Origin: Haliotis rubra
Taxonomy: Eukaryota
Direction of reading: 5' to 3'
NCBI RefSeq assembly: GCF_003918875.1
Contig: NW_025767508.1
Location: 1 to 64,000, forward strand
Length of the DNA: 64,000 nt
Both the position numbers and the translations under genes were made by a program. The stretch's first letter is position 1; the number at the start of each line of letters is the position of its first letter. Positions 429 through 43,000 of the stretch are shown here, piece by piece. A model generated the notes under the pieces. It did no database searches and was not told where the DNA came from. It saw only the letters and a program-made list of their open reading frames with translations.

Positions 429-596
429 AGTAGTATACACAAAGATTGTCCGAGACCAAGTCCAACAAAGCCTCTGTAAAGCTTTATTTCACAAATAAAG
501 CTTTGTCAGGGCCCTTAGATCTCGCCACCATTGTATATACTACTTTTGAACCCCAAGTTAACTTCCCGACCCCACGTGATACAATAGTGTCGCTAT
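429..596 (+). repeat. Polinton left terminal inverted repeat (outer part)
   Basis: Reverse complement of 11076-11244 with scattered mismatches and indels (e.g. aaagctttatttcacaaataaagcttt, cttagatctcgccaccattgtatatact). Confidence 0.95.
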
Positions 597-628
597 AGAA
601 TATACCTATAGAAAGATAGAAAGGTTTT

Positions 629-642
629 AAAAAGTAGTAAAA
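629..642 (-). terminator. Candidate Pol III terminator (TTTT then TTTTT)
   Basis: Minus strand reads CGGGGAC-A-TTTT-ACTAC-TTTTT directly after the 3' strand of the terminal stem. Confidence 0.55.
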
Positions 643-937
643 TGTCCCCGGCAGCCACAATTCCGCAAGGGTGAAATCGAAAGATGATGTTGCGCTTCTC
701 CCAAGGGGAATTGCGTCAGCTGCCTTTCTCTCGTCATGAGAGTGCCCCACTCAGCTAAGCCCTTTTCAGCGACCCAACTGATATGATCCTGATTCCTTAC
801 CGAAACACCTCACATCACACAAAGTTGTAAGGAATCTCCACTGAGGCAACTGGCGTGGATCTGAGAACCCACATGTATGGCTCGCGCAAACTATACATAA
901 TGGGCCGCACCACTCAACCCGATTGAGCTACGGGGAC
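643..937 (-). ncRNA. Candidate tRNA-scaffold / VA-RNA-like Pol III non-coding RNA (~295 nt) in the Polinton
   Basis: 5' GTCCCCG pairs with 3' CGGGGAC; TA then D-arm-like GCTCAATCGGGTTGAGT containing A box TAGCTCAATCGG (930-919); B-box-like GTGGGTTCTCAGATCCAC (872-855); several further helices; oligo-T terminator. Confidence 0.6.
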
Positions 938-988
938 TTAGCTGAATAATCTCAGTTTAACGGATCTATCCTGAGATTGCAAAGCTGG

Positions 989-1050
989 GACCGTGAACTA
1001 GCACTTTCCTGATCATGTGACTTGTCGTGTTGACCTCGAGGAAACAGTTT
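989..1050 (+). repeat. Inner segment of Polinton TIR (inverted partner of ~11020-11075)
   Basis: gaccgtgaactagcacttt...ttgacctcgaggaaacagttt is the reverse complement of aaactgtttcattgaggtcaa...aaagtgctagttcgcggtc. Confidence 0.85.
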
Positions 1051-1089
1051 AATGTGAATGAGCTGGTTACTGGATACTATTGGGATTAC

Positions 1090-2080
1090 TCAACAGTAAG
1101 TGTTAAATATTTTGCTTTGGGGTAACATTGTGCCGTACGGTATGACTAATAATTCCTCTCTGACGAAACCTCTCCCTGGCCCATCTCTCAAGTAGTACAA
1201 GTTCGGCTCGTCAGCTTTGATGTCCACTTTATCTATGTTGTAAGTTTTGACTGACCATATCGGATTGGTGGCTCGTTTCCGAGTGTCCCCTTCGTGTTCC
1301 CCGGCTGGTAGAGGTACCTCACAAAGGGCCCTATCGGTATCTGTTTCTCCTTCCCGCGTGATGGTGCAGCCGACTCTGCCACTATTGATTTTAGTTTGAT
1401 AGCGTCGGCTGGTTTCTTGCCGGTGAGGCGACGGGTGGTTTCTGGTGGTTGATGGCCGACACAACCTGAGGTAGCCGCACCACCCATTCAGTCGATTGTA
1501 TCCCCGGGTTGGCCATCTCTATCGATACTGATGCCCGAATAAAGCTCGGACAAAGTCCTATTGAATCTCTCAACTATGGCTTGGCTGCGATGAGCCCGGG
1601 CCGTGCGCCTGACCTTTGTATCGTGTTTGTCTAGCAGGTGTGACCACGGCACCCATGAACTCCCGCCTGGTGTCGACTTGCAGCTCTGTGGGCCACGTCA
1701 GTGGACTGCATTTGTACATGCGTTCGAATCCGCGGGCTACCTTGGCCGAGTCTTTTCGCAGTCAAGGGTTCAGCTTCCTTGTAGGGACTGGCCACGTCCA
1801 CGACAGTTAGGGCATACTTGTACCTCTTATCATGGGGTAGGAACAGAAGGTCGGCCTGGTGAACGCTATTGGATGCGCGGTAATACCGAACCTTCTTCGA
1901 GGCACGTAAGCGTGGTACTGGTAAATAGATCTGCCACAGGGCTTGTTTTTCAAGCCACGCTTTGGCCTCGTCCGGGGGTACTCGCGCCATTTTGGCCAGC
2001 TTATGTAATGCGCCAGCTCCTTTCCAGTACCCACGCGGGCTGTAGTAAATAGCCTCAAACTTTCTCTGGTTCCGTGACAT
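1090..2080 (-). pseudogene. Polinton retroviral-like (rve) integrase, frameshifted
   Basis: Fragments IYYSPRGYWKG...WLEKQALWQIYLP, VHQADLLFLPHDKRYKYALTVVDVAS, EWVVRLPQVVSAIN, RKRATNPIWS...YYLRDGPGRGFVREELLVIP spread across several frames. Confidence 0.9.
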
Positions 2081-2116
2081 CCTGACATATATACACCTAT
2101 GTTCTTGGTTCAATTT

Positions 2117-4550
2117 TCTCATGCCCGCATCATCGGCGTGCGTGTTGATCCCATCAATAGCTATCCAAGCTTTAGTGTCCATCGGCGACAGGGACGTCTT
2201 GTTTATAGTCAGTCCATATATCCTATGCCCATCACTTCTAAGCATGTTCATTTTTATGTCTGAAGGTGCGGGTCTTGAACAGGGCTTCCTTGAATCTGGC
2301 GTGTTTGTAGTGTTGTTTAACCACGTGCTTCTTAACACCCTTTCGCCTTCGGATCTCACCATTGTCGGCCTTCAGGATGGAGTACATCTTGGGTCTCAAG
2401 CCTATGTACTCAGCTATGGCCGTGCCAACACACTCGTCCTTCCTCTTACCGAGGACCTTTTTATTTACCGCTGTGTATGGCATGGTCCTTGGGGTAGTCG
2501 CTGACATCATTACATAAATCGAGGCGTTTCTTCATGTCCTCGTACACGTCCTCGGTTCGAATCTCCATCAGCAGGAAATCCGTGTCTGTGTACAGCACTT
2601 CGCACCTGTCGCCGTACTGTTTCTTCAGTTCGTTGTAGTAAAAGTGGTACATCAGGTGTTTGGATAAATCGAGGATGCTCATCCCCACGTGAAAATAGGC
2701 GGTTGAATTTGATGTGGCTTTTCTTCATGTGTAGGGCAACCAGGTCGTCGGTGAATATCTTGCTCGGTTGAATGCGGGCTGGCTATCAGTTTCCTGAGCT
2801 TGTCTTCCTCTTTCGACCCAACCAGCTTCACGGTCACGCATTTCCTCAGGTTCTCCATAGTCTTACCGAACACCGAGTTGTTCATGAGCTTGTAGAGGTT
2901 TTTCTCAAAGTCACTGGTGGCCAGCTTTCGCAGGTCCGTGTTCATTCTGATGTAGGGCTCCATCCAGGGTCTCCGTCGATCACGAGCACCCTGTGTATTT
3001 TGGTCAGCCTCATACCCAACGACAGGTACAGCTGTAGGGTTTCGATAGTGAACGATGTGCTTGGTCGTATTCATTAAGTTGGGCACGAGTTTTCAACGTC
3101 TGCCACCCGCCCACCCAGCAAGTTATGTTGGTACTCGGACATCCAGTCTGGGTTAACCCTCAAACGTTCGGGGGCCAGGGGGTAGCTGTTGTGCGATGTG
3201 TGTAATGCCTTGGGGTATTCCAAGTCCACCTCGAGGATATAGCCTTTGTTCGAATCCGGCGCGATGCTCATAACATCGATCTCGGGTGATGCCCATTCGA
3301 ATCCCCCTGTGGGTAGATACTGGCTCATGGCCCAGCCGTACAGGTTGTTGGCGTGTTGGGTTGATTCGGGTTATAACCCTTCACGTATTGATTATTGGCT
3401 TTTGTGTAGCGTTTAGAGGCCATGGAAATCCCACCTCGCAAGCCTTTCTCAATGAATAGGTGCATGTCGTAATCGGTGAGCAATTCCAACTTAACTCCTG
3501 TCTTTTTCAGCAACAGACCTGGGCTGGTGTAGTACCATGCGGGTCGAGTTGATACTGCTTAAAACACGTCCTCCTAAACGTCTCAAACACGTCGGCTAGC
3601 AGGAGTACATCTGTCCTCAAGTACAGGTCGTGGTAGTCACCCAGATTCTTACAGCCCACTTTATTCCATACGTTAATCGCGTGCGAGTAATCGTCTTGGG
3701 TGATTGTCGAGTCGGTCAGGTTGCTGTAAAATCGGTTGATGGGGGGTAGTCGGGTCTCTGCGAACTTGGCCCAGCCATCCATGTACTCGTAGGGGTACAC
3801 ACCCTTCCTCATCAGCAGGGGTCGAGTCTCGGCGTCGGTGTATCGATCGGTGATGGGGAAGGTATCGTTCAGCCTTGACCAGACTGTTGAGTGACGACAG
3901 GAGGAACTGAACCGAGTAGATGAACCTCAGGCCATTCAAGCTGAAGGAGATGTATCTCTCCTTGTTGTTGGGGATGCACGTCAGGTTGCCGTGGACTTTC
4001 ACGATGGCCTGCATGATCAAGTGAGAGTCGTATCCTCTCAAGTTGTGGAAGACCACGAGGGGATGTTTATTGTCTTGGGGTTGATTCTGAGCTTGAGGTT
4101 ACACATGCTGTGAGCGGCCTCTATACTTACGGTGGCGGCAGTGATCTCTCAACGAATCGCCATTCAGCGGTTTATCACATACATGACAGTGAGTGCTGCA
4201 GCGGTGAGATAGCCGGTCGGCTTTGAGTCATACGCATGGGAGCGACTGTATACAGCCCATTCCTGATAGTTTTCTCTTCCTCCTTCAAACACTTTAGAAA
4301 CTTTTCAGCCGCGTCGGGTCCCCTGTACACTACGGAGCTTTCGTTTCCCATCACATCGACGACCACGTATCCAAACCCACAGGCCTCGTGCTCCTGTGTT
4401 TTTGTGTGTTGGGGGTACCCCAGCATCAACAGGTTTGTGAAGGCTTCGGGTTGGCGTAGATGATGTAAGGCACGGGCATCTGATTCTTGTGGTTGTCGAA
4501 TTTTAAGATATTGTCGGCTTCCTTAGGCATGTCGACTCAGTAAATGGCTT
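2117..4550 (-). pseudogene. Protein-primed family B DNA polymerase (pPolB) with endonuclease VII-like insert; N-terminus missing
   Basis: MPVPYIIYA; RDHC..GKYRAAHSMCNL (EndoVII-like); VFHNLRGYDSH; RKGVYPYEYMD; ANNLYGWAMSQ (motif A); KLMNNSVFGK (motif B); YTDTD (motif C); GLRPKMYS; many frameshifts. Confidence 0.95.
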
Positions 4551-4563
4551 GCCGCCAGGCAAA

Positions 4564-5738
4564 TCAATAGATGGCTTGCACGAATCTCCCATTCTCTATA
4601 TTAAGTTGCACGTCCATAATCACATTACAGATATAATTTCCATTTGCCTGCGGGTTGAGCCTTCTTGGTAATCTGGATTGTTATCCCTCGCTGCCGTTGT
4701 CGATGCGGCAACTGCTGCCGCAGGTAATTTATCGTCATCCATGGATCGCATGTCCAACAATAGCCGTACTTGGTGGTCAGGTATTCACCCGATCTGCACG
4801 GGCGATAGGTCCAGGTCCTTGTGGACGTGTTGGTGCCAGGTCGGTAGCTGAACAACTGGTTGGGCATGCCCTCGATGGTCACTTCCACCTTTTCAATCTC
4901 GGGGTTGAAAACTTCAAGCCTATCCCATCGAACGGCTCGTAATCCCTCACGGGATGATCAGGGATATCTTTCATCGATCGTGCCGGCACCTTCTTGTCCC
5001 GATTGATCGCTCTATGCCTCAGGACCCCTATCGTACAGGATGGCCACCTTCCCCGAGTAACTGGTTTTGAACCTGCCTTGGCCAGCTCCGGGCTGAAGTG
5101 ACCATGTCGAACTCCAGATCGATGTTGGCTTCATCACAGTTTGGCGTATGACGCACGACTTTGCTGTAGTCGTATTGAACGTGAGCTCGTGATTCAAGCC
5201 TATCACCCAGCTGCCTAGTAAAATGGCGCGTGTCCGTCAACAACTTCGAAGTCGGCGCACGCAGAACCTGTTCCATGACGCTTTGGGCGATGGCCTTTTC
5301 ACCCTCTGAGATCTTGTCTAGCTGGTCTTGCGTGGAAGCCTTTACCCCACACGCAACCGGGTCGATTTGTTTATACCTTGGTACACGTCATTGACGCGTT
5401 CTCCCTCGCTTTTCAAGAGGTCCCCATAGCAGTGAAAGACGCCGCTGTTGTCGATGCTCAGCACCTCGTTACGCTGATCTTGATGGTGGTTTTCTTGATG
5501 ATGGCCCGACCTATGTTCCGCACTAGCTCGCGTTTGTCGTTGTCGGAGGGTCAACGTGAGGTTGAACGTCAGTCGAACCGTGCCTGGTACGATGAGGTCA
5601 TTCTCACCCAGGTTTGGGAATCTAACCAGCAGCTTTTGGTTCTGTTCTATCTTGCTGGGATTGTGCGACTGGCGCACGGCTCTGACGCCTAGAGGCTTTC
5701 TTTGATCTTCTGAAAGGATCTAGTTTCCTACCATACAT
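4564..5738 (-). pseudogene. Polinton major capsid protein (double jelly roll), frameshifted
   Basis: Starts MYGRKLDPFRR, continues NPSKIEQNQKLLVRFPNLGENDLIVPGTVRL and EVTIEGMPNQLFS, ends GITIQITKKA...VIMDVQLNIENGRFVQAIY*; pattern recognised from Polinton MCPs. Confidence 0.85.
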
Positions 5739-5775
5739 TGTTATATAGATAAAATATAAAAGTTTAATATAAATA
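5739..5775. promoter_or_regulatory. Short AT-rich divergent intergenic region (putative bidirectional promoter)
   Basis: 37 bp, almost only A/T, between the ATG of MCP (-) and the ATG at 5776 (+). Confidence 0.5.
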
Positions 5776-6950
5776 ATGGCTGACGACATCGAAATGGATG
5801 ATTTTGACGCTGGTGCGTCCGTTGAAGTGGATTCCGGTGAAGACACCTCATTCATGGGCGGCACCTTGAGCGTAACTTTTAAAAACAACCGTCAACGACA
5901 TTACAAGGGGTTAACACAGGATAAAAATTACGTCAAGCCGTGGGGAATAGAGTATTCCAAGTTTACGATCGATCGATGACAAAAGGGCACGCTGCTATTG
6001 AAAGCTCATCCGGAGATCGATCTAAGTGAATAAAGCGACGCGAAAACCGCTCGCTTTGTCTACTCTCACGGTCGCCATGGTACTGACTTTATCCGTGATA
6101 GATTAAACATCGCGAGTTCACGGTGGCGCCACGACTAAGCTTCCCGAAGGTCGTCCAAGATTTGCAAAACATCATGGCGAACTCAGCGGTGAAGGTGATA
6201 TACCCCAACGTGCTAAAGAAACATCAGACATCAAAAAAAATATTGACCATGTACCATGATAAACCCTTGCCGGTTTTGAATTTCCCCTGAGGGAACTGTA
6301 GGGTCTAGACAAAGCCTTGAAGCGCGTAATGCAGCGGAGAACTCGCGTGAACAACATGGGAAACTGAACAAAGTCGACAAGCACATCGCTCGCGATAAAA
6401 TAAAACTCACCGAAGCGGAGGACGATGATATGAAACGTCGTATCGAGGGAGAGAATAAAAACTTGGAAGACGATAGATGGACTCGGTTTGGAATCCGCTT
6501 CCTCGAACTGGAAGCCCTCTGATCCCAGATCAGTCGTGTACGGGAACCATCGATCGATTCCTAAATGAGGGGACACCACACTATCTGACAGGATCCGAAT
6601 CCTCTTCTGAGAGCAAAGGGATCAACATCGCCAGCATTCTGACGGCATTGGGCTTCATCATATCAACCCCTGGTGATGCGCTGCTGCGCCACCGGCTGCC
6701 CTCGACGGTGGTACACCAGGTGGTACACCCACTGGTGTCGTCAGAGACTGGATAAAAACACCTGAAATCCCTCTGGGAGGCCCTGGCTAAAATCGCTGGT
6801 AAGGCGCCGAAGCCCTGCCCGGCATCCTGGGTAGCATCGTCTCGTGGCTGCTCAGCATGCTGGCTAAAACTGTCACGTGGCTTGGTCAAAACCTGTTGGC
6901 AGCCATCGTCGTAAAGCTATGACGGGTCCTGTACATAGTGGCTAAGGAAA
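5776..6950 (+). pseudogene. Polinton coiled-coil protein with C-terminal hydrophobic helices, frameshifted; end approximate
   Basis: MADDIEMDDF... then FPLRELYGLDKAL, QISRVRETIDRFL, GINIASILTALGFIIST, LPGILGSIVSWLLSMLAKTVTWLGQNL across frames. Confidence 0.65.
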
Positions 6951-8148
6951 TTTTTAAACAAATAAGCCCCCACCCGACTGCGACGACCCGCCAACCACCA
7001 GCGCTGTTTTCACGGTCGATGTGCTGCTGATTGGACGCCTGCACGTTAGGGGTTGGGGTTGTGGGGGTGTTGGTTGAACCCCTGGGCTCTGGGGGTGGTA
7101 CAACTATGGCCGTTTCACCCGTGGGAGGTGGGACATGACTCACGTTGATGCCTACATTGACGCACCCAACTTCTGGTCGGCCGTGGCTATAACTATTTCG
7201 TTGTTGTAACCAACCACCTTTTACTCTCGATTGCATATCGGCTCCAGAGCCATTTACAATCCCACGTCGAAGACGTAGTCGACTTTCGACCGGCGTATTC
7301 CAACAAGTCTTGGTAGCGTCGGATAGCACTCGGGAGATCAACTGGAGCATTGATAGCATCCCTCGGCGTTGGACCAGCGAACTGTTTCTGCAGCGCCCTG
7401 GACAGTCCCCTTACCGATAATACTGGGCAGCGTTTCCGCCTGTGCACCTAACAGCGCCCACACGCACGTTCGAATCGAGTCGTTCAAGCGTTCGGTGCCA
7501 GCACGAGTAAACCCTTTCGACGTCCAGCATGAACATTTTTCAATCGTCCACGGGCCCCTGCTCGAACCTCCAGACTTCGGTCATCCTTGCTGGTGTCGAA
7601 AGCCATGTAACAGTCATCCCACTCGTTTGTTGTGATATGATACGATTTGTAACACAAATCTTTCACCAGCTGTTTGCTGACTTACGCGATGTGTTTATTG
7701 TGAGTGATGGGGATACTCCAACCCATATGGTTCGAGCCCGGCAAACGCCAATCCGTCTTCAGGTCTGTTTGAATTCATTGCAAACGCGTTCATAGGCCCG
7801 TTTATCATACTGGTTCTTTACTGCGTCCCATGCTTTGTCCTGTGGGATTGGAGCACTGATCTCTTTGAGGATACACCTGACCTGGTAGTACACGCCGAAG
7901 TGTCGGTTAATGTCAAGCCACACCCGATGTGAAGCGCACCACAAGGCGAAGTTGAGTTGATTCTGTCAGAACTGCATCAGGTTGTTGAACCAAGCATGGA
8001 CTACCTTAGCACTAGTCACCGAAAACCTATACCTGGCAAATACATCTATAAACTGGGCGCCGAAATACAACCCAGAAGCATCAACCACAATCTTCATGTG
8101 TGGGAAATCTATGTCCAGTTTAGGGTAAAACACTCCTGGCTTGTACAT
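6950..8148 (-). pseudogene. Conserved Polinton hypothetical protein, frameshifted; end approximate
   Basis: MYKPGVFYPKL..., QNQLNFALWCAS, FGVYYQVRCILKEISAPIPQDKAW, GFTRAGTERLNDSIRT, DAINAPVDLPSAIRRYQDLLEYA; Pro/Thr-rich and hydrophobic end. Confidence 0.65.
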
Positions 8149-8164
8149 TTTAAAATTATATATA

Positions 8165-8798
8165 ATGGGTATATATACTCATACATAGAGTAACACTTCC
8201 AGGAATAACGAGCGGAGAGTCCGTTCAGTTGATACACGCAATCGATAACACGTCGGGCCAACTCGAAGTCGCACTCCTGCGATATCAACAACAACAAGCT
8301 GTTCGTCAGTGGCACCCGCAACCAGATAACTGACGTCTACTACAGTGTGTACTAAGTGACGAAGTCTTCAAACCCTTAGGAGCCGAACTCAAGATGAACG
8401 ACGCAAACGGAACAGTGGTGTTAATCAACAATGGAATAACCCTCTTGATGCTCGGCCGACCATTGGCGAGGACACTCGGGATGTCGCCAGACGAGATAAA
8501 ACCAACAACTACCGTCACAGGCACGAAGTTACCCGACCTGGTACCGTACCGAGAGCTGTGCATTCATCTCGGTCAGTTGAGCATAACGGACATTCAAGGT
8601 GGCCACCCTTCCACGATACTGAGAGCTTTATCGGTGAAAACGGAGAAATACAACGACGGTAGAACCGAGTCGTTTTCGCCGCGTCAGTATAAGAGGTTAA
8701 CTCGGGGCAAAATCCCTGAGTTGATAATATCAGTGTTAGATATAAAGCATAATCCTGTGAATATTGGATACCTCAGCATAACGCTTCATCTAAAATGA
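8165..8798 (+). pseudogene. Putative minor capsid (penton, single jelly roll) protein
   Basis: N-terminal VTLPGITSGESVQLIHAIDNTSGQLEVAL, then ORF 8394-8798 ELCIHLGQL...GHPSTILRAL...FSPRQYKRLTRGKIPELIISVLD...ITLHLK; beta-rich, Polinton mCP-like. Confidence 0.65.
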
Positions 8799-9650
8799 CC
8801 AAGCACAAGGCCTCGGGATGAAGTGGAAAAAAATGCGTCAATGCGGGGGATCTCCGACCTCGGGGACACACGCAGATTCGACGACCCCGGAGTAGATGGT
8901 AAACTGTACGCCTTGCAACTGAAAAACAACATTTACAAACGCGTTGAAGTCCCCTCCATCGGTGGAACCCTAGGTGATATAGTAGATGTCTCAGGAGTAG
9001 CCCTCAACACTTTCGGTTCGACCTAGTCCGCGATCGGTGATGATAGATGGGCGGTATCCCAATCGTTGGGAGGAGGCAAACTGTTCGACTGTTGATGGCA
9101 CGACTGTCGCCCGAAACAAGCCATATACGCTCGTTGTTACCCTCTCACGATTGGTTTCTCAACATTAGTCTAGGGCTCCCTACGTGTTCACGGAGAACAA
9201 AGACAACTACCTAAACAAAGTCGTGAACAACGGAACCCTGCTCGTGGCTTACGTCCCGGCTCAGAGACGTAAAGCGTAATCATCAGCCCTGTCGCCAGTA
9301 TGGCAGCCCACATGCTATCGAGTAAACCGGGAGTGCAAGGCTGGGCATTGCAGTTGGTGTCTGAATTCGCATGGCGTGGTCAACATCCTGGCGAGCCTAC
9401 CGGCTAACTCCACGCTGATCATCAAAGTCTACCTAGTGGAACCATCGCTGGATGAAGTCAGAAATCGTGAAGGGGATCAAACTCCGTGGGTGAAACGGCA
9501 CCAGTATTAGGGTTTGCACTGTTTACATGCGGGTGGGTGTCGACTCCCACACCAGTCTGCAGGGGTCACCGTGACCGTGGAAGACATGATATCACTCACC
9601 AAGATCTTCCTACCGACAACATACTAGTACTTCCATGGGGGTAGTGCACC
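8795..9650 (+). pseudogene. Fibre-like protein 1 (degenerate); end approximate
   Basis: ISDLGDTRRFDDPGVDGKLYALQL followed by LGDIVDVSGVALNTFGSTLV..DDRW; overlaps the penton stop codon. Confidence 0.4.
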
Positions 9651-9704
9651 CCTGAGAAATTATCAGAAAACAATTGGAAACTATCTCGTAATAGTATTAT
9701 AGCA

Positions 9705-10399
9705 ATGCCCAATCGTCATCGGCCCAGCGCCACACTTAACGATCTAGGAGACACGGAGGGATTCGATCTGCCTGGTGAGGAAGGTGGTTCATATGTCCTG
9801 CTCTTCAGAGACGGCGTGTACATCATGGCAGCCTCTGGCAGACTTCAGAAGAACCCGCATGGGTTGATCAACATTGCCCTTACCGCGACCTTATACATCT
9901 CTAAGAGACAAAATGGGTTTGTCTCGAAATTAGGAACAACTTTCTCTTGCTCAGGGTTTTCATTCCGGGTCTATTGCATATGTCAAGATAGGCACTGATC
10001 ACCTATACAACACGTTAGTTTCAGTAGGAAAAATAAATTAAGGTTTGTCGCCCCCAATGCCCAATTGGGGCTTGTGGATATATACCCACGCCCACACTCA
10101 TCATAGAAGTCCTCTTTTTGAAGATAGCCCCGGATAGTTCACCAGTACCACTTTTTACCCAGGGTGGCAATATACTGGCTACGCGAACACATATACCAAC
10201 TTTGCAAATTATCTTCGCCCACAACCCGGATGCCTTAACGGATCCTATAGACCCTTTAGTAAGCCTCCGTGGGGTTTATGTTAGAGCAGAGGTACCTAAT
10301 AGCCTCTCACCTATTACCCAGCCTGATGGCCTGGACCTTGTAAGCTTCAAATACACTACACAAGATTTAAATAGCACACAATTAGAAAATATCTCATAA
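9705..10399 (+). pseudogene. Fibre-like protein 2 (paralogue of 1, degenerate)
   Basis: LNDLGDTEGFDLPGEEGGSYVLLFRDGVY aligns with the N-terminus of the 8823 ORF; beta-rich remainder in fragments. Confidence 0.4.
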
Positions 10400-10424
10400 A
10401 ATATATTATATATACACACACAGG

Positions 10425-23700: not shown

Positions 23701-24033
23701 GAAAATCAAGGCAAAAAGAATCCGGCGCTCAGAGGAGGTAAATATGCACTCCATTTACTAATTAACAATATCATTATTGTTAATACATCCTTCATAAAAG
23801 ATATACATTCACTATGTGTGATATCATTATGAGAAACTATATTTTTGGAGAGAGATGAGATAGTTTTATGAACTTTTATTAAACTCTGTGTTGGACGTGT
23901 GAATCTACATATGCTGTGATATGTATATGTGGCATCGTATCCCTCCTAATTTCAGACAGACCTCTTGAAGGACGAAGCAGCAATCAATGAAGCACTATTT
24001 AGATATGAATCGGAAGAAGCCATCATTGACTAA
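14503..24033 (+). CDS. SAMD9-like: SAMD9-like antiviral STAND protein with N-terminal ubiquitin-like domain; exons 14503-14700, 16316-16646, 17910-23737, 23956-24033 (~2144 aa)
   Basis: Giant exon encodes SAM-like repeats, AlbA_2 domain (LEFK...ETLRFACGCLNRRRNGTIYFGIAD...HGQIVG), SIR2-like region (WCAVFDFD), P-loop HHEPGAGGST, Walker B LLLLID, TPR-like and OB-like (FYLGFSLSGPV) regions. GT-AG phases match (0,1,0). Exon 1 is the least certain. Confidence 0.9.
14703..14781. repeat. Compound microsatellite (CA)n(GCAC)n(CA)n(CATA)n
   Basis: Directly visible, immediately after the exon 1 donor. Confidence 0.95.
14874..15010 (-). mobile_element. 3' tail fragment of a dispersed retroelement ending in (ACTC)n
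   Basis: Same sequence family as ~30300-30436 (+) and ~55752-55880 (-). Confidence 0.7.
15030..15805 (+). mobile_element. Non-LTR retrotransposon ORF2 3' remnant
   Basis: LRCSSHELLIEKGRY...RTCQLC...IEDEYHF is the C-terminal zinc-binding motif of LINE ORF2 proteins; upstream part is degenerate. Confidence 0.75.
16811..17690. mobile_element. Degenerate mariner-like element in SAMD9-like intron 2
   Basis: TA|CGAGGGTCGATCAAAA ... TTTTGATCGCCCTCG|TA. Confidence 0.8.
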
Positions 24034-34269: not shown

Positions 34270-34429
34270 GGCGGTAGGGTAGCCTAATGGTTAAAGCGTT
34301 CGCTCGTCACGCTGAAGACCCGGGTTCGATTCCCCACATGTATGGGTACAATGTGTTGAGCCCATTTGTGGTGTCCCCTGCCGTGATATTGCTGGAATGG
34401 TGCTAAAAGCGGCGTAAACATGAACTCAC
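34270..34429 (+). mobile_element. Full-length tRNA-derived SINE with (ACTC) tail
   Basis: A box GTAGCCTAATGG, B box GGTTCGATTCC; TSD tctgatcaaagcgg at 34256-34269 and 34430-34443. Confidence 0.9.
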
Positions 34430-35765
34430 TCTGATCAAAGCGGCGTTCTACCCATATGTCAGCTGCATTTGGTCAAGCATTGTCAGTGTTAGAAATGCTA
34501 TTTGGTAGTGTGGCATTAATAATGCTTTCTCGCCTTTTTAACATTGACAAAAACGTTATTTGTCAACAGCCTCTAAATGACGCAATACAGGTAAACAACA
34601 CGCCTTTCCATTATAAGATACATAATTATCCAAAACACGTAAACCAAAATATGAACATTATTTAGGAACTGGAAGTGGCCACTCATTAAACGGTGGGGTC
34701 ACCAAAGACATGCATTTGGGACAGGTATAAAATTTTAGCGAATCTTCAGTCGTTTATGAAACATTTTAACATAGTTCGTCGTAATTACAAACTGCCCTAG
34801 GCATTTAAATAGGAACGATAATCTAGCCTTTGGTCGTTTTCTGATATCTTAAACACGGATTGGGGCACCTATCGCTGTAATGCGGGTTAGTTTCCATTAA
34901 ACCAACGGGTTTATTCTACGATGTTTTAACCCAGGTGGAGGAATAACCAGATGTGTGGTTTATTGTATCCACCCTTTAAATACTTATCTGAGATGTATGA
35001 CTTACTACATGTCTGTGCACTTAATATTATTCTGTTAATGAATCTACTGAATGTATTAAACCATTCATCAATTTCTGCATGTTGCCCTTCAATAATCATC
35101 ATCCATCGTTTCACCATGATGTTTACCTTTACCTGTTATTGCTGCTCAGTCACGCATGTATGGGTTTAGTGGGGACATGGCTTGAGACAGAACATTCTTT
35201 CAGTTAGCGTTTCGAGAGATACTATGCTAAATTTATTTAAAATGATGCGTCAAGCGATTGAGGGAACCGCTTCACTTTTATCAGATCACCCAAAATGTCC
35301 GTAGAAGGATGTTTCTTTAAAACACTTAAGGAGAGCTTTTGCATCCACGGGAACAGATATTTGAAGTTAGAAGTCATGACCGCCCCTCGTGCCATGACTT
35401 GTGGCACGATAATAGCTACACGAAAGAACCCTGCGATTACTAGTAATGCTATTTCACAAAGGGAACATTGAAAATGTTGAATGATCATACCATGTGCTTT
35501 TCAATGATCTGTTCACATATATGTTCACCGGTATTATACATTTCCTGCCCGACAGATTCTGTTTTGGTCGGTATTCTCAGGTGGAAACGTTTTATATATT
35601 TATTAGGTCAATCTTTGCACACATGGAGCTAGTTATTCATAGAAATTCATATGATTATTTAGTAAAAATTATCAATAAAATAAGTAGTTTAAAATTATTT
35701 TACATGTTTCCGAATGAACAAACTCTCACAAAAATTCTTTGAGAGGCATTTTAGAAGTTCTAAAG

Positions 35766-40099: not shown

Positions 40100-43000
40100 T
40101 TACACCGGGTTGCCACTTTTAGAACTGACGACTTCTCTATGGGAGACGTCCTCGTGACTGAAACTGCCGTGTATCACGTTGTCAGCGGAGTCTCTAAATG
40201 TATTCACTGGGAATAGTGGACTGCCTTGTGAACTCGTCTCGGGTGTACAGGACATTGATGAAACCTCGTCCTCACTCTCATTCAACATAATGTGCTTGAT
40301 TTCGTCGTCTTCGTCAGTGAACGCAGCGTCCTGAACATCCCTGAGAAACTTGTCCAGCTCCTCCTGTCCTCCAAGCTGCTTGTCCAGCCAGTCTTTGGCC
40401 TTGTTGACCACCACCTCCCACACTAGACGTTCATTTGGGCATTCCAGCGTCAACCAGCAAATCGCCAACCCAGTCGCCCATACATTTAAGTCCTGAACAA
40501 AAAGAAGGATGTGTATGTAATACTATGTATGTGTTGAGCTGTTATTAAACTCGAGCCAGTTCACCTGAATGGGTGCTGGGTAACAGCTGGATGGAGCAGT
40601 AGGTCATTACTAGTTTCTTTGCTTCCGTCCACATTTGGTTATATAAAGAAAACTTGGACAGGTAAGGTATTGATTTAAATCACTCACAGTGCACACTGCC
40701 ATCTTTATCAGTCTGTACCGATGTACATTGATGAGACAACAAAGTGCCTCACTCAGCATCCAAGCGCCGTCATCCTCCTGCAGTGTCACCATCTCACTCG
40801 CTGTGGGCGAATCTGAACAACTCAACACGTCATGGCTGATACACGTTCGATCTGAATTATACCAAAGGAAAGATCAATGGTAAAAGTTAAAGATTTGTAT
40901 CCTTATTTGTCGTACATTAACATATTTCAGATGTATGATCCCCAGGGAGTTGAGATTGACAATACGATGTGCCGTTGAGATTGACATCCAGTGAACGAGG
41001 GAAAAACAAAGCGCCTTTGAGCAGCTGAGCTGAGCTGGATATCGGCGCTATACAAATGTTAGTATGTATGTATGTATGTATGTATGTATGTATGTATGAA
41101 AATAAGCGAATAACAGGCAAATAACCCACACCACCTCTGTGACATGTCGCATGTTTATGATAGTCAATGTTCAGAATACTGTTGACGAATGAGGTGACGT
41201 ATGTCAGGCCATGTCGTGTTAAGAAATAACAACCGTACATCTGTTTGATTTCTGGCCATGATCAATACATTTGTAACTGAAAGAAACAGTTGACATCGGG
41301 GATTGTGAGTGAACGACTTTCATAATTCCAGTTAAAACATGGTTTCACATGTTGGATGAAAGCCTAAAGACCATCCCTTCTGTGATCCCAACACGTATGA
41401 GCTGCCACACCAGAGTGCATGACCAGTGCAGATTAAACCAACGTGTATTGGATTCAGTCATGAACAACAGATACAACAAATTCCGACACCTTAGACGACC
41501 TGTGTGTTATACCATCAGGCGACAGCTGTCAACTTCGGGTAATGTCAAAGCCTACACTCACAGATATTATTGTTAAACAAATGAGCATTGTATAGAGCCG
41601 AATACAAGATTAGAAACAGAATGTTTATTGCAAATCAAAATGTTTCAAATAAATGATTCTATGTCACTAATACTTTACAACGTTAACTGTATTGTATTGT
41701 AATAAGTGTCTACGTTATAATACGTTTGAAATACGAAAAGCAGTAAATGACGATGGAAGGCCACGTGTATGATAAAGACAGGTTGATGTTGTCACCCCTG
41801 TATTCGTATAACGATGTAGCCAGGTTATGTATTACCTTCATCAGTGGTCTCTGCTACATCAGCTTCAGTTGCACTGCAAGAGACATCCATACACTTGTCT
41901 AACTGTTTAATCAGCGTAACATACGACTTACAACCACTTAAAAATATCGGATTCTTTCATAGCATGACATAATTATGTTTTATTTATAAATTATTCATAA
42001 TTTATTTATGATTATTCTTTGGTTATTAGTTTGTACCATATTGCCTTTTACACTTACAAGACCAGGTGTACATATTATGATTATCATTATTATAACGGAG
42101 ATATAGTGAAACCTTGTTAAACCGGACGGACTAGGCTCCTTGTGACTGACTGACTGACTGAGTTTGGTTTTACGCCGCTTTTAGCAATATTCCAGCAACA
42201 TCACGGCGGGGGACACCAGAAATGGGCCTCACACATTGTACCCATGTGGGGATTCGAACCCGGGTCTTCGGCGTGACGAGGCTCCTTGTGAAAACGTTAA
42301 GAGTAACACATTTCGGGAATACCGGGACACTTGCATTTAGAAGCCATCCTTTAACTGTCGCATATTGGATAACAAACAATTACCGAGGTGCCACAGTAGA
42401 AGTATTTTTCACACAGTTATCCGAAAGTTAAATAGTAATTATAAACAAAAATAATCACGATTATGGACACGCCAAACCTTACTCGGGAATCGTTCATACC
42501 TCATGTCCGTACGCGTTATCTGACGTGTAGTGGGCTGGGGGTGGTCCTCGGTGGTCAATACGTCCACACCAACGAATGACGTGTACTTTGAAACTACATT
42601 ACCCGACATACTGGCAGCTACTATCTCATCCTTCTTCAACCCGCCGAACTCTGTGAAATAAGTCATACATACATGCTGACTATTACTGCTACTAATACTA
42701 AATATCATCTGCATAAAACATTAATTGATTACAAACAAGTTCGCCAGAGAAACACCATATCCAGCATTTAATACCTAATATTCGTATCTAAGTCGTGCTG
42801 GTATACATAGATGAGAAGACGGGTGTGGAGGGGCAGTGTCGAGGGGTGAGGTACGTTGTGAATATGCTCATATTTCCAGGCGATACTTACAGGGTTGAAT
42901 AGTTGTTCCATGCAATACTATTGTTTTGTTTGTGTGTTGTCTCAAGCCTCACTCAGAAATATTCAAGCTATATGACGGCGCTTTGTAAATACGTTTGATG

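Follow-up and report, generated by a model that had tools for sequence, protein, structure and literature searches.

A predicted Pol III-type RNA gene family with a conserved fold in the terminal repeats of Polintons

In silico analysis of the window, a stretch of 64,000 nucleotides from Haliotis rubra taken at its full length, revealed a decayed Polinton that carries a predicted gene for a structured RNA in one of its TIRs. The element is composed of the following parts:

429..11244, no strand: decayed Polinton (Maverick/adintovirus-type) carrying the RNA gene, recognised by AGTAGT...ACTACT ends, TIRs and broken integrase and pPolB genes
429..1059, no strand: left TIR region, of which 429-596 and 989-1059 match the right TIR
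1120..2080, minus: broken rve integrase gene, located by tblastn with a sister ORF that matches Pfam rve
2471..4536, minus: broken protein-primed DNA polymerase B gene, located by tblastn with a sister ORF that matches Pfam DNA_pol_B_2
11011..11244, no strand: right TIR, without the Pol III unit (TIR comparison)

The assignment to Polintons relies on (i) an rve integrase together with a protein-primed PolB and (ii) TIRs that start with AGT repeats and are accompanied by a target-site duplication. The flanking duplication at the AGTAGT...ACTACT ends has 5 bp; the usual Polinton target-site duplication is 6 bp long. In a comparison limited to Pfam, the candidate packaging ATPase and capsid ORFs of one sister copy gave no match. 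A palindrome is present in both TIRs (window 477-503 and 11169-11195), its arms co-vary among family A copies and it is a candidate replication-origin hairpin. The polymerase N-terminus at locus L113 (1703-5095, minus strand) contains Rho_N-like repeats and an endonuclease VII-like stretch.

The RNA gene sits inside the left TIR, points outward, and has the broken integrase gene upstream of it in the same direction. The 392-bp block 597-988 is missing from the right TIR of this copy. The parts of the gene are arranged as follows:

639..937, minus: predicted Pol III RNA gene, family A long form, about 295 nt, pointing to the element end (fold z, homologs, covariation)
954..973, minus: conserved upstream motif at about -36 to -17, common to families A, B and most C copies
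919..930, minus: A box, read from the sequence, overlapping the 5' strand of the terminal stem
873..898, minus: hairpin between the A and B boxes, with UGCGC in the loop (884-888); 7/8 pairs here
855..872, minus: B-box region, damaged in the window copy as judged from alignment with sisters; 5/5 pairs for the hairpin
791..836, minus: 10-bp helix, optional family A module; 10/10 pairs at 791-800/827-836
751..781, minus: hairpin, optional family A module, missing from the ~255-nt variants
728..742, minus: small CUCUC/GAGAG hairpin, common to A, B and C; 5/5 pairs
656..715, minus: long 3' stem-loop, predicted to stack on the terminal stem, with GCGCA at its apex (691-695); 10/11 pairs here
644..655, minus: 3' strand of the 12-bp terminal stem, pairing with 927-937; pairing kept in B and C
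629..642, minus: oligo-T terminator read from the sequence, T4 at 639-642 and T5 at 629-633

The first-pass annotation, made from the letters of the window, had described a Polinton-encoded RNA with a tRNA-type Pol III promoter, a terminal stem and an oligo-T end, and had proposed it as an immune decoy; this interpretation is partly supported. The features it placed in 629-937 (minus strand) are all present at its coordinates, as verified by pair counts and T-tracts, including the terminal pairs 931-937/644-650 (7/7), the helix 658-664/707-713 within the long 3' stem-loop (7/7) and the hairpins 728-742 and 873-898. The unit lies, as claimed, within a Polinton (429-11244), and the predicted promoter is borne out by an A box in this copy and a B box in its sisters. 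The region folds at -114.8 kcal/mol, and the RNAfold-type z-score against shuffles, which the annotation had proposed as a check, is -3.09, with 1/100 shuffles equally good.

Three of its helices need a different reading. The B-box hairpin described as a "T-arm" is present, but its 18-nt form is private to the window copy, in which the B box is damaged; in the sisters this hairpin is shorter and the B box can be recognised. The helix 651-655/719-723 has 5/5 pairs here but is not kept in family B, and the A-box strand is the more likely partner of 651-655, a pairing which is kept in B and C, has 4/4 pairs in the window copy and extends the terminal stem to 12 bp. The long T-arm and the 651-655/719-723 helix have been rejected as conserved features. 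The helix 791-800/827-836 is complete but confined to part of family A, being missing from family B and from the ~200-nt A variants. The hairpin 728-742 is lost in some short A variants; a hairpin homologous to 873-898, with paired changes, is seen in B and C by eye in the alignments.

In comparison with its sisters, which keep the A box, the B box and the T-tract, the window copy is damaged in the head and the B box, and is itself probably a pseudogene. The A-box motif has been identified in 75/78 A-long and 26/33 B-long copies, the B-box motif in 63/78 and 23/33, and the apical motif of the long 3' stem in 73/78 A and 30/33 B copies. The family A B box differs at one conserved position from the canonical motif. 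T-tracts follow the stem also in families B and C, and in A-long units a TACTAC motif lies after the T-tract. The upstream motif was found ahead of 77/78 A-long, 34/34 short and 30/33 B-long units, in a sample which is not random, some loci having been chosen by this very motif; at 954-973 (minus strand) it is a candidate TATA-like or upstream promoter element.

The host genome (1.38 Gb) was searched for further copies. The DNA search gave 896 candidates, 40 of which were scored, and all 30 loci that were fetched continue into Polinton ends. Pattern matches with at most one mismatch number 472 for the head, 518 for the upstream motif and 54 for the B/C stem, and the 3' end of the long A form was found 216 times against 1545 family A TIR ends. 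Many of these matches form inverted pairs, spaced by 14-15 kb, and represent the two TIRs of one element. Twenty places, chosen for lacking a listed partner, are all Polinton ends by eye (14 with the TIR pattern, 18 with an adjacent gene), and 28 of 30 B/C places inspected have a TIR or a Polinton gene near, the other two keeping the Polinton upstream block. The distance of the unit from the termini is 100-250 bp, and frequently both ends of an element have it. The family A variants span 184-302 nt and share a core of promoter domain, terminal stem and long stem, with variable internal hairpins. The long form is also held by DNA runs labelled as three organisms, whose kinship is not established, one of them giving a single contig over 608-1021 at less than 90% identity. 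In four sequencing runs tentatively taken as RNA, the unit is covered by low-depth contigs which continue into the integrase and from which ends, strand and level are unreadable.

These data bear on the possibility that a host SINE landed in an ancestral Polinton and has been passively carried since. Like tRNA-derived SINEs, the unit has a tRNA-related head with A and B boxes, similar to host tRNA-Asn, and the 392-bp block resembles an insertion when the two TIRs of the window copy are compared. Unlike SINEs, it is not dispersed outside the Polinton context in any of the copies inspected, has neither a tail nor a target-site duplication of its own, and travels together with a fixed upstream flank; furthermore, the covariation described below arose at orthologous Polinton positions. 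The confinement of the copies to Polinton ends and the fixed upstream motif lead to the rejection of this explanation, which is largely refuted and by now extremely improbable. The first-pass annotation had itself named a dispersed SINE, a lack of conservation or covariation among sister copies and a consensus devoid of a functional B box as reasons to abandon its claim; each was looked for and none was found.

A tRNA origin is a separate question. ARAGORN found no tRNA in the window, Rfam gave nothing near the gathering score on the window and ten sister loci, and identity with a tRNA or a viral tRNA-miRNA was rejected (best tRNA score 18.9 bits versus 29, no ARAGORN cloverleaf with an anticodon arm and an acceptor stem closed beside the T arm). 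The family B head has 11/12 of its first nucleotides in common with host tRNA-Asn, with one gap; for the family A head, the common parts are the D-loop and the 3' acceptor strand. These likenesses are a suggestive lead to an origin from a host tRNA, tRNA-Asn being the closest of three host tRNA-type heads; the Asn head was compared, the Glu and Asp-like heads were judged by eye only, and the genome tRNA search was swamped by SINEs. Loci L310-L315 (G000:C169) belong to a host tandem array of ~690-bp units, each with tRNA-Asn and tRNA-Glu genes.

Following the upstream motif led to a second form of the gene, form B (~248 nt, z -4.08), in elements whose proteins are mostly 60-75% identical to those of family A. 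It occupies the same place as form A, ~130 bp from the terminus and at either end, and possesses a canonical B box. In form C the linker and apex are replaced by a small hairpin and a CA-rich loop. Over the first 95 nt and the last 45 nt the three forms can be aligned collinearly. The cassette of form B or C is turned inward, together with its upstream block, in at least seven loci, and is thereby independent of orientation to the terminus. At L280, L281, L283, L342, L346, L347 and L350 the inverted cassette is accompanied by several hundred bases of upstream TIR and points into the integrase or the last gene. Locus L332 holds an A-type long RNA with a diverged head in a B-type TIR, as a recombinant or an intermediate lineage would. 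Tandems of long and short units, recalling the paired VA RNAI/II genes, occupy one end at L078, L020, L024 and L068. No more than two bases from the predicted start, foreign sequence is joined at L158 and L159 (just before +1) and L119 (from +1); these joins could be insertions targeting Pol III start sites, or deletions.

Since the helices of the first-pass annotation were predicted from the window alone, families B and C serve as a test of them. Between A and B all 12 pairs of the terminal stem are kept (94.5% of cells paired), with three double-sided and two wobble changes, and the long 3' stem has two double-sided changes between A and B/C. For the terminal stem, long stem and B-box hairpin taken together (8 sequences, 23 pairs), 95.7% of 184 cells are paired, compared to 41-50% in controls with slid partners. 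Double-sided changes between families affect six pairs; the seventh in the count stems from a single shifted row. The shuffle control ignores relatedness, and the slide control and a simulation were used instead: when the same substitutions are placed at random, the probability that every pair survives is 0.0014, 0.17, 0.059 and 0.024 for four helices, or ~3e-7 when multiplied, the register of the first hairpin having been set by hand. Paths from U-A through U-G to C-G are found among natural copies in the first hairpin and the long stem, and the G-U intermediates lie on the predicted strand. In 18 long copies (that of the window and 17 random ones from 110) the sense fold has z from -3.2 to -7.8, lower than the antisense in 18/18; stable folds are obtained for the antisense strands too (z -2.3 to -6.6), and six coding windows range from -2.1 to +1.0. 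This is good evidence, at the level of sequence comparison, that an RNA structure has been under selection, the covariation being contributed by two to three lineages from one genome.

Inside single families the signal is weak. In A, pairing is maintained no more often by shared variants (11/30) than by singletons (23/79), and in B somewhat more often (8/13 versus 17/82), a comparison blurred by CpG decay and long-read errors; shared alleles are equally dense in stems and loops. Pair 5 of the terminal stem is broken in an A subfamily (10/80 units). The first hairpin loop and the apical loop are complementary over 5 nt, a property retained without covariation in A, B and C; both motifs are present in 61/78 A and 16/33 B copies, which makes a loop-loop pairing a candidate feature.

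The unit is reduced or lost in many family A elements, which could not be seen in the first-pass annotation. Short forms of ~80 nt were unstructured in 12/12 tested of 34 (z -0.6 to +1.9) and occur at both ends of young elements, with TIR identity of 252/255 and 246/248 (99%). A B box is present in 47/56 short stubs and an A box in 27/56; the stubs appear to derive from the long form by deletion. The exact head or upstream motif was found near 29 of the first 100 TIR ends; among 20 other TIR ends, 14 have a long, short or degraded unit and six, the ends of three elements, have none. Elements without any unit at either end make up 3/7 of those sampled, and a promoterless version with the hairpin alone recurs in three loci. 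The stubs, hairpin-only and null elements indicate that the RNA is dispensable in cis, which is evidence against a vital role. The long, stub and null alleles of one genome provide a natural comparison set.

Among the closest known systems, the adenovirus VA RNAI/II share several properties with it: a viral lineage with linear DNA and pPolB, internal A and B boxes, an A box within the terminal stem, a four-U end and a proposed tRNA origin (PMC7589676). Tested against these properties, the Polinton RNA has both boxes, a terminal stem with box A and a four-U terminator. Nevertheless, it is 190-300 nt long (A 184-302 nt) compared to ~160 nt, its B box lies in a 3-bp hairpin instead of the apical stem, its terminal stem is only 12 bp, and the alignments, inspected by eye, hold no invariant GGGU-ACCC pair. 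It is furthermore located in a TIR, has no Rfam match, belongs to an invertebrate host and has a function that is predicted only. Membership in the VA RNA family was rejected on size, B-box position, the GGGU-ACCC pair and the Rfam match. VA RNA itself is an abundant transcript which inhibits PKR by binding it and serves as a Dicer substrate. Vault RNA/nc886 combines a type-2 Pol III promoter, paired ends and an oligo-U end, as the Polinton RNA does. The Polinton RNA differs in lacking an Rfam match, in being element-borne and multicopy and, in its long form, in having the B box far from the 3' end. For nc886, a role as PKR repressor has been described (PMC4500795). EBERs use upstream elements together with a weak B box. 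EBV EBER1/2 are likewise structured viral Pol III RNAs with an oligo-U end (PMC4378190), but differ in being herpesvirus genes of another fold, without sequence match to the Polinton RNA. A tRNA-type promoter, hairpins and a U-tract are also found in the MHV68 tRNA-miRNA RNAs and BLV pre-miRNAs (same source); the Polinton RNA differs from them in having no tRNA that ARAGORN could fold and in pairing its 5' end with its very 3' end, so that the hairpins are enclosed.

That these observations stem from a genuine Pol III RNA gene which was once under selection for structure is highly probable, and, granted such a gene, the odds that its product is a decoy are even. The preferred reading as a whole, to which we give slightly less than an even chance, is that a Polinton-borne Pol III gene yields a folded RNA of 190-300 nt acting in trans as a decoy for dsRNA sensors or Dicer; by analogy, it would be an accessory RNA that works like VA RNA yet stands outside that family. 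Host TFIIIC would bind the A and B boxes, with the upstream motif helping to position TFIIIB, and RNA polymerase III would transcribe from ~937 to the T-tract. The last 30 nt of the transcript would be paired continuously, 12 with the 5' end and ~18 within the long stem, and coaxial stacking of the terminal stem on the long 3' stem would give a nicked duplex of ~30 bp, a length near the binding threshold of dsRNA sensors. This duplex may bind the host sensors without activating them, to the benefit of replicating elements. A diffusible product would allow elements that lost the RNA to spread further, which would account for the many stubs, and both the old selection on structure and the frequent loss in individual lineages could be explained in this way. 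Nine RIG-I C-terminal-domain matches have been found in the host genome, and working RLR signalling is reported for molluscs (PMC6723221). The longest antisense matches of the RNA to the genes of the element have 11-12 nt, and no long one was found. Three RIG-I C-terminal-domain matches (G000:C158:2082746-2186110) flank a Polinton copy at C158:2118004-2131207.

The same RNA might instead be a Pol III precursor of small RNAs, in which Dicer or Drosha cuts the long 3' or terminal stem to release a guide against host genes. The 3' stem of A can be extended to ~25 bp, miRNA models score weakly (E 0.3-1.5, below the gathering scores), no other long stretch is as well conserved between families as the 3' strand of the stem, and viral precedents exist (BLV pre-miRNAs, MHV68 tRNA-miRNA chimeras, mivaRNAs; PMC4378190). 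This is nonetheless unlikely: the B stem is bulged and its apex branched, the 3' strand differs between A and B at five internal positions, so the guide would change, and the tRNA-like part, unlike that of the MHV68 RNAs, is not closed before the hairpin. We also regard it as unlikely that the promoter matters and not the RNA, with TFIIIC or Pol III at Polinton ends acting as a chromatin barrier or positioning the element, and the tail only stabilising or terminating the transcript. Common unstructured stubs that retain the B box far more often than the A box would fit this, as would the distance of the unit from the termini and its frequent presence at both ends; but the compensatory changes across the 12-bp terminal stem and the long stem would be left unexplained, the stubs resemble deletion derivatives, elements with the hairpin alone or no unit also spread, and the cassette is inverted in some families.

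Somewhat less probability is given to a role in the element's own cycle, such as packaging, replication or guiding a protein to the TIRs as EBER2 does (PMC4378190), perhaps through the loop-loop complementarity. The location of the gene in the TIR, the retention of that complementarity in all three families and the Rho_N-like repeats of the polymerase point in this direction, whereas the loop motifs lack covariation, complementarity to the rest of the element is not beyond chance and elements without the unit have transposed. Finally, the stems could be hairpins of the DNA strand that is displaced when the element replicates by protein priming, and could be maintained or corrected by template switching, with the A and B boxes as relics of an old tRNA or SINE. 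The well-folding antisense strands, the other palindromes in the TIRs and the frequent rearrangement of the ends agree with this; G-T pairs, however, accumulate on one strand only, as fits RNA, the boxes and the T-tract keep their order and orientation over ~30% protein divergence, and between +1 and the T-tract the 5' and 3' ends of the predicted transcript form exact pairs, which renders the DNA-hairpin explanation very unlikely.

As far as searched, the predicted Polinton Pol III-type RNA genes appear to form a real and previously undescribed family. In titles and the beginnings of abstracts no non-coding RNA of a Polinton was found; Repbase, subscription journals and supplements could hold an annotation. 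In the available text of the adintovirus paper the terms "Pol III" and "noncoding" are absent and "tRNA" appears once, for other viruses (PMC8502044). In viral contigs no match was found to the head pattern, the B-stem pattern or the integrase, and four matches to the upstream motif, without a downstream unit, were taken as chance. The best 80 of 428 metagenome integrase loci (395,510 bases) gave no profile match at E<=10 and no pair of A and B boxes; many of these loci are without element ends, and the result does not amount to absence of a homolog.

Polintons have been described almost wholly by their proteins, and a structured Pol III RNA under pairing constraint in diverged families adds a non-coding gene class to them. 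If the decoy reading is right, a VA/EBER-like solution would have arisen again in an invertebrate-infecting relative of adenoviruses, and the RNA would open a way to study how an invertebrate host senses RNA. A transposon confined to the genome would gain little from a dsRNA decoy, so that it also becomes testable whether Polintons are selected as viruses. More tentatively still, Polintons may have independently evolved a VA-like, tRNA-derived Pol III RNA in their terminal repeat that neutralises invertebrate dsRNA sensing and serves as a public good among hundreds of copies; this would make it the first gene for a non-coding RNA in a Polinton, and a direct sign that these elements evade antiviral immunity as viruses.

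Several other features have been identified in the window. An open frame of 1989 codons extends over 17792-23761 on the plus strand. The segment 25586-27651, with 129-bp inverted repeats around 1.8 kb and internal 29-bp repeats, is likely a non-autonomous DNA transposon. Host SINE copies of tRNA-Asp-like type, unrelated to the Polinton RNA, are located at 34270-34440 and ~42150-42280.
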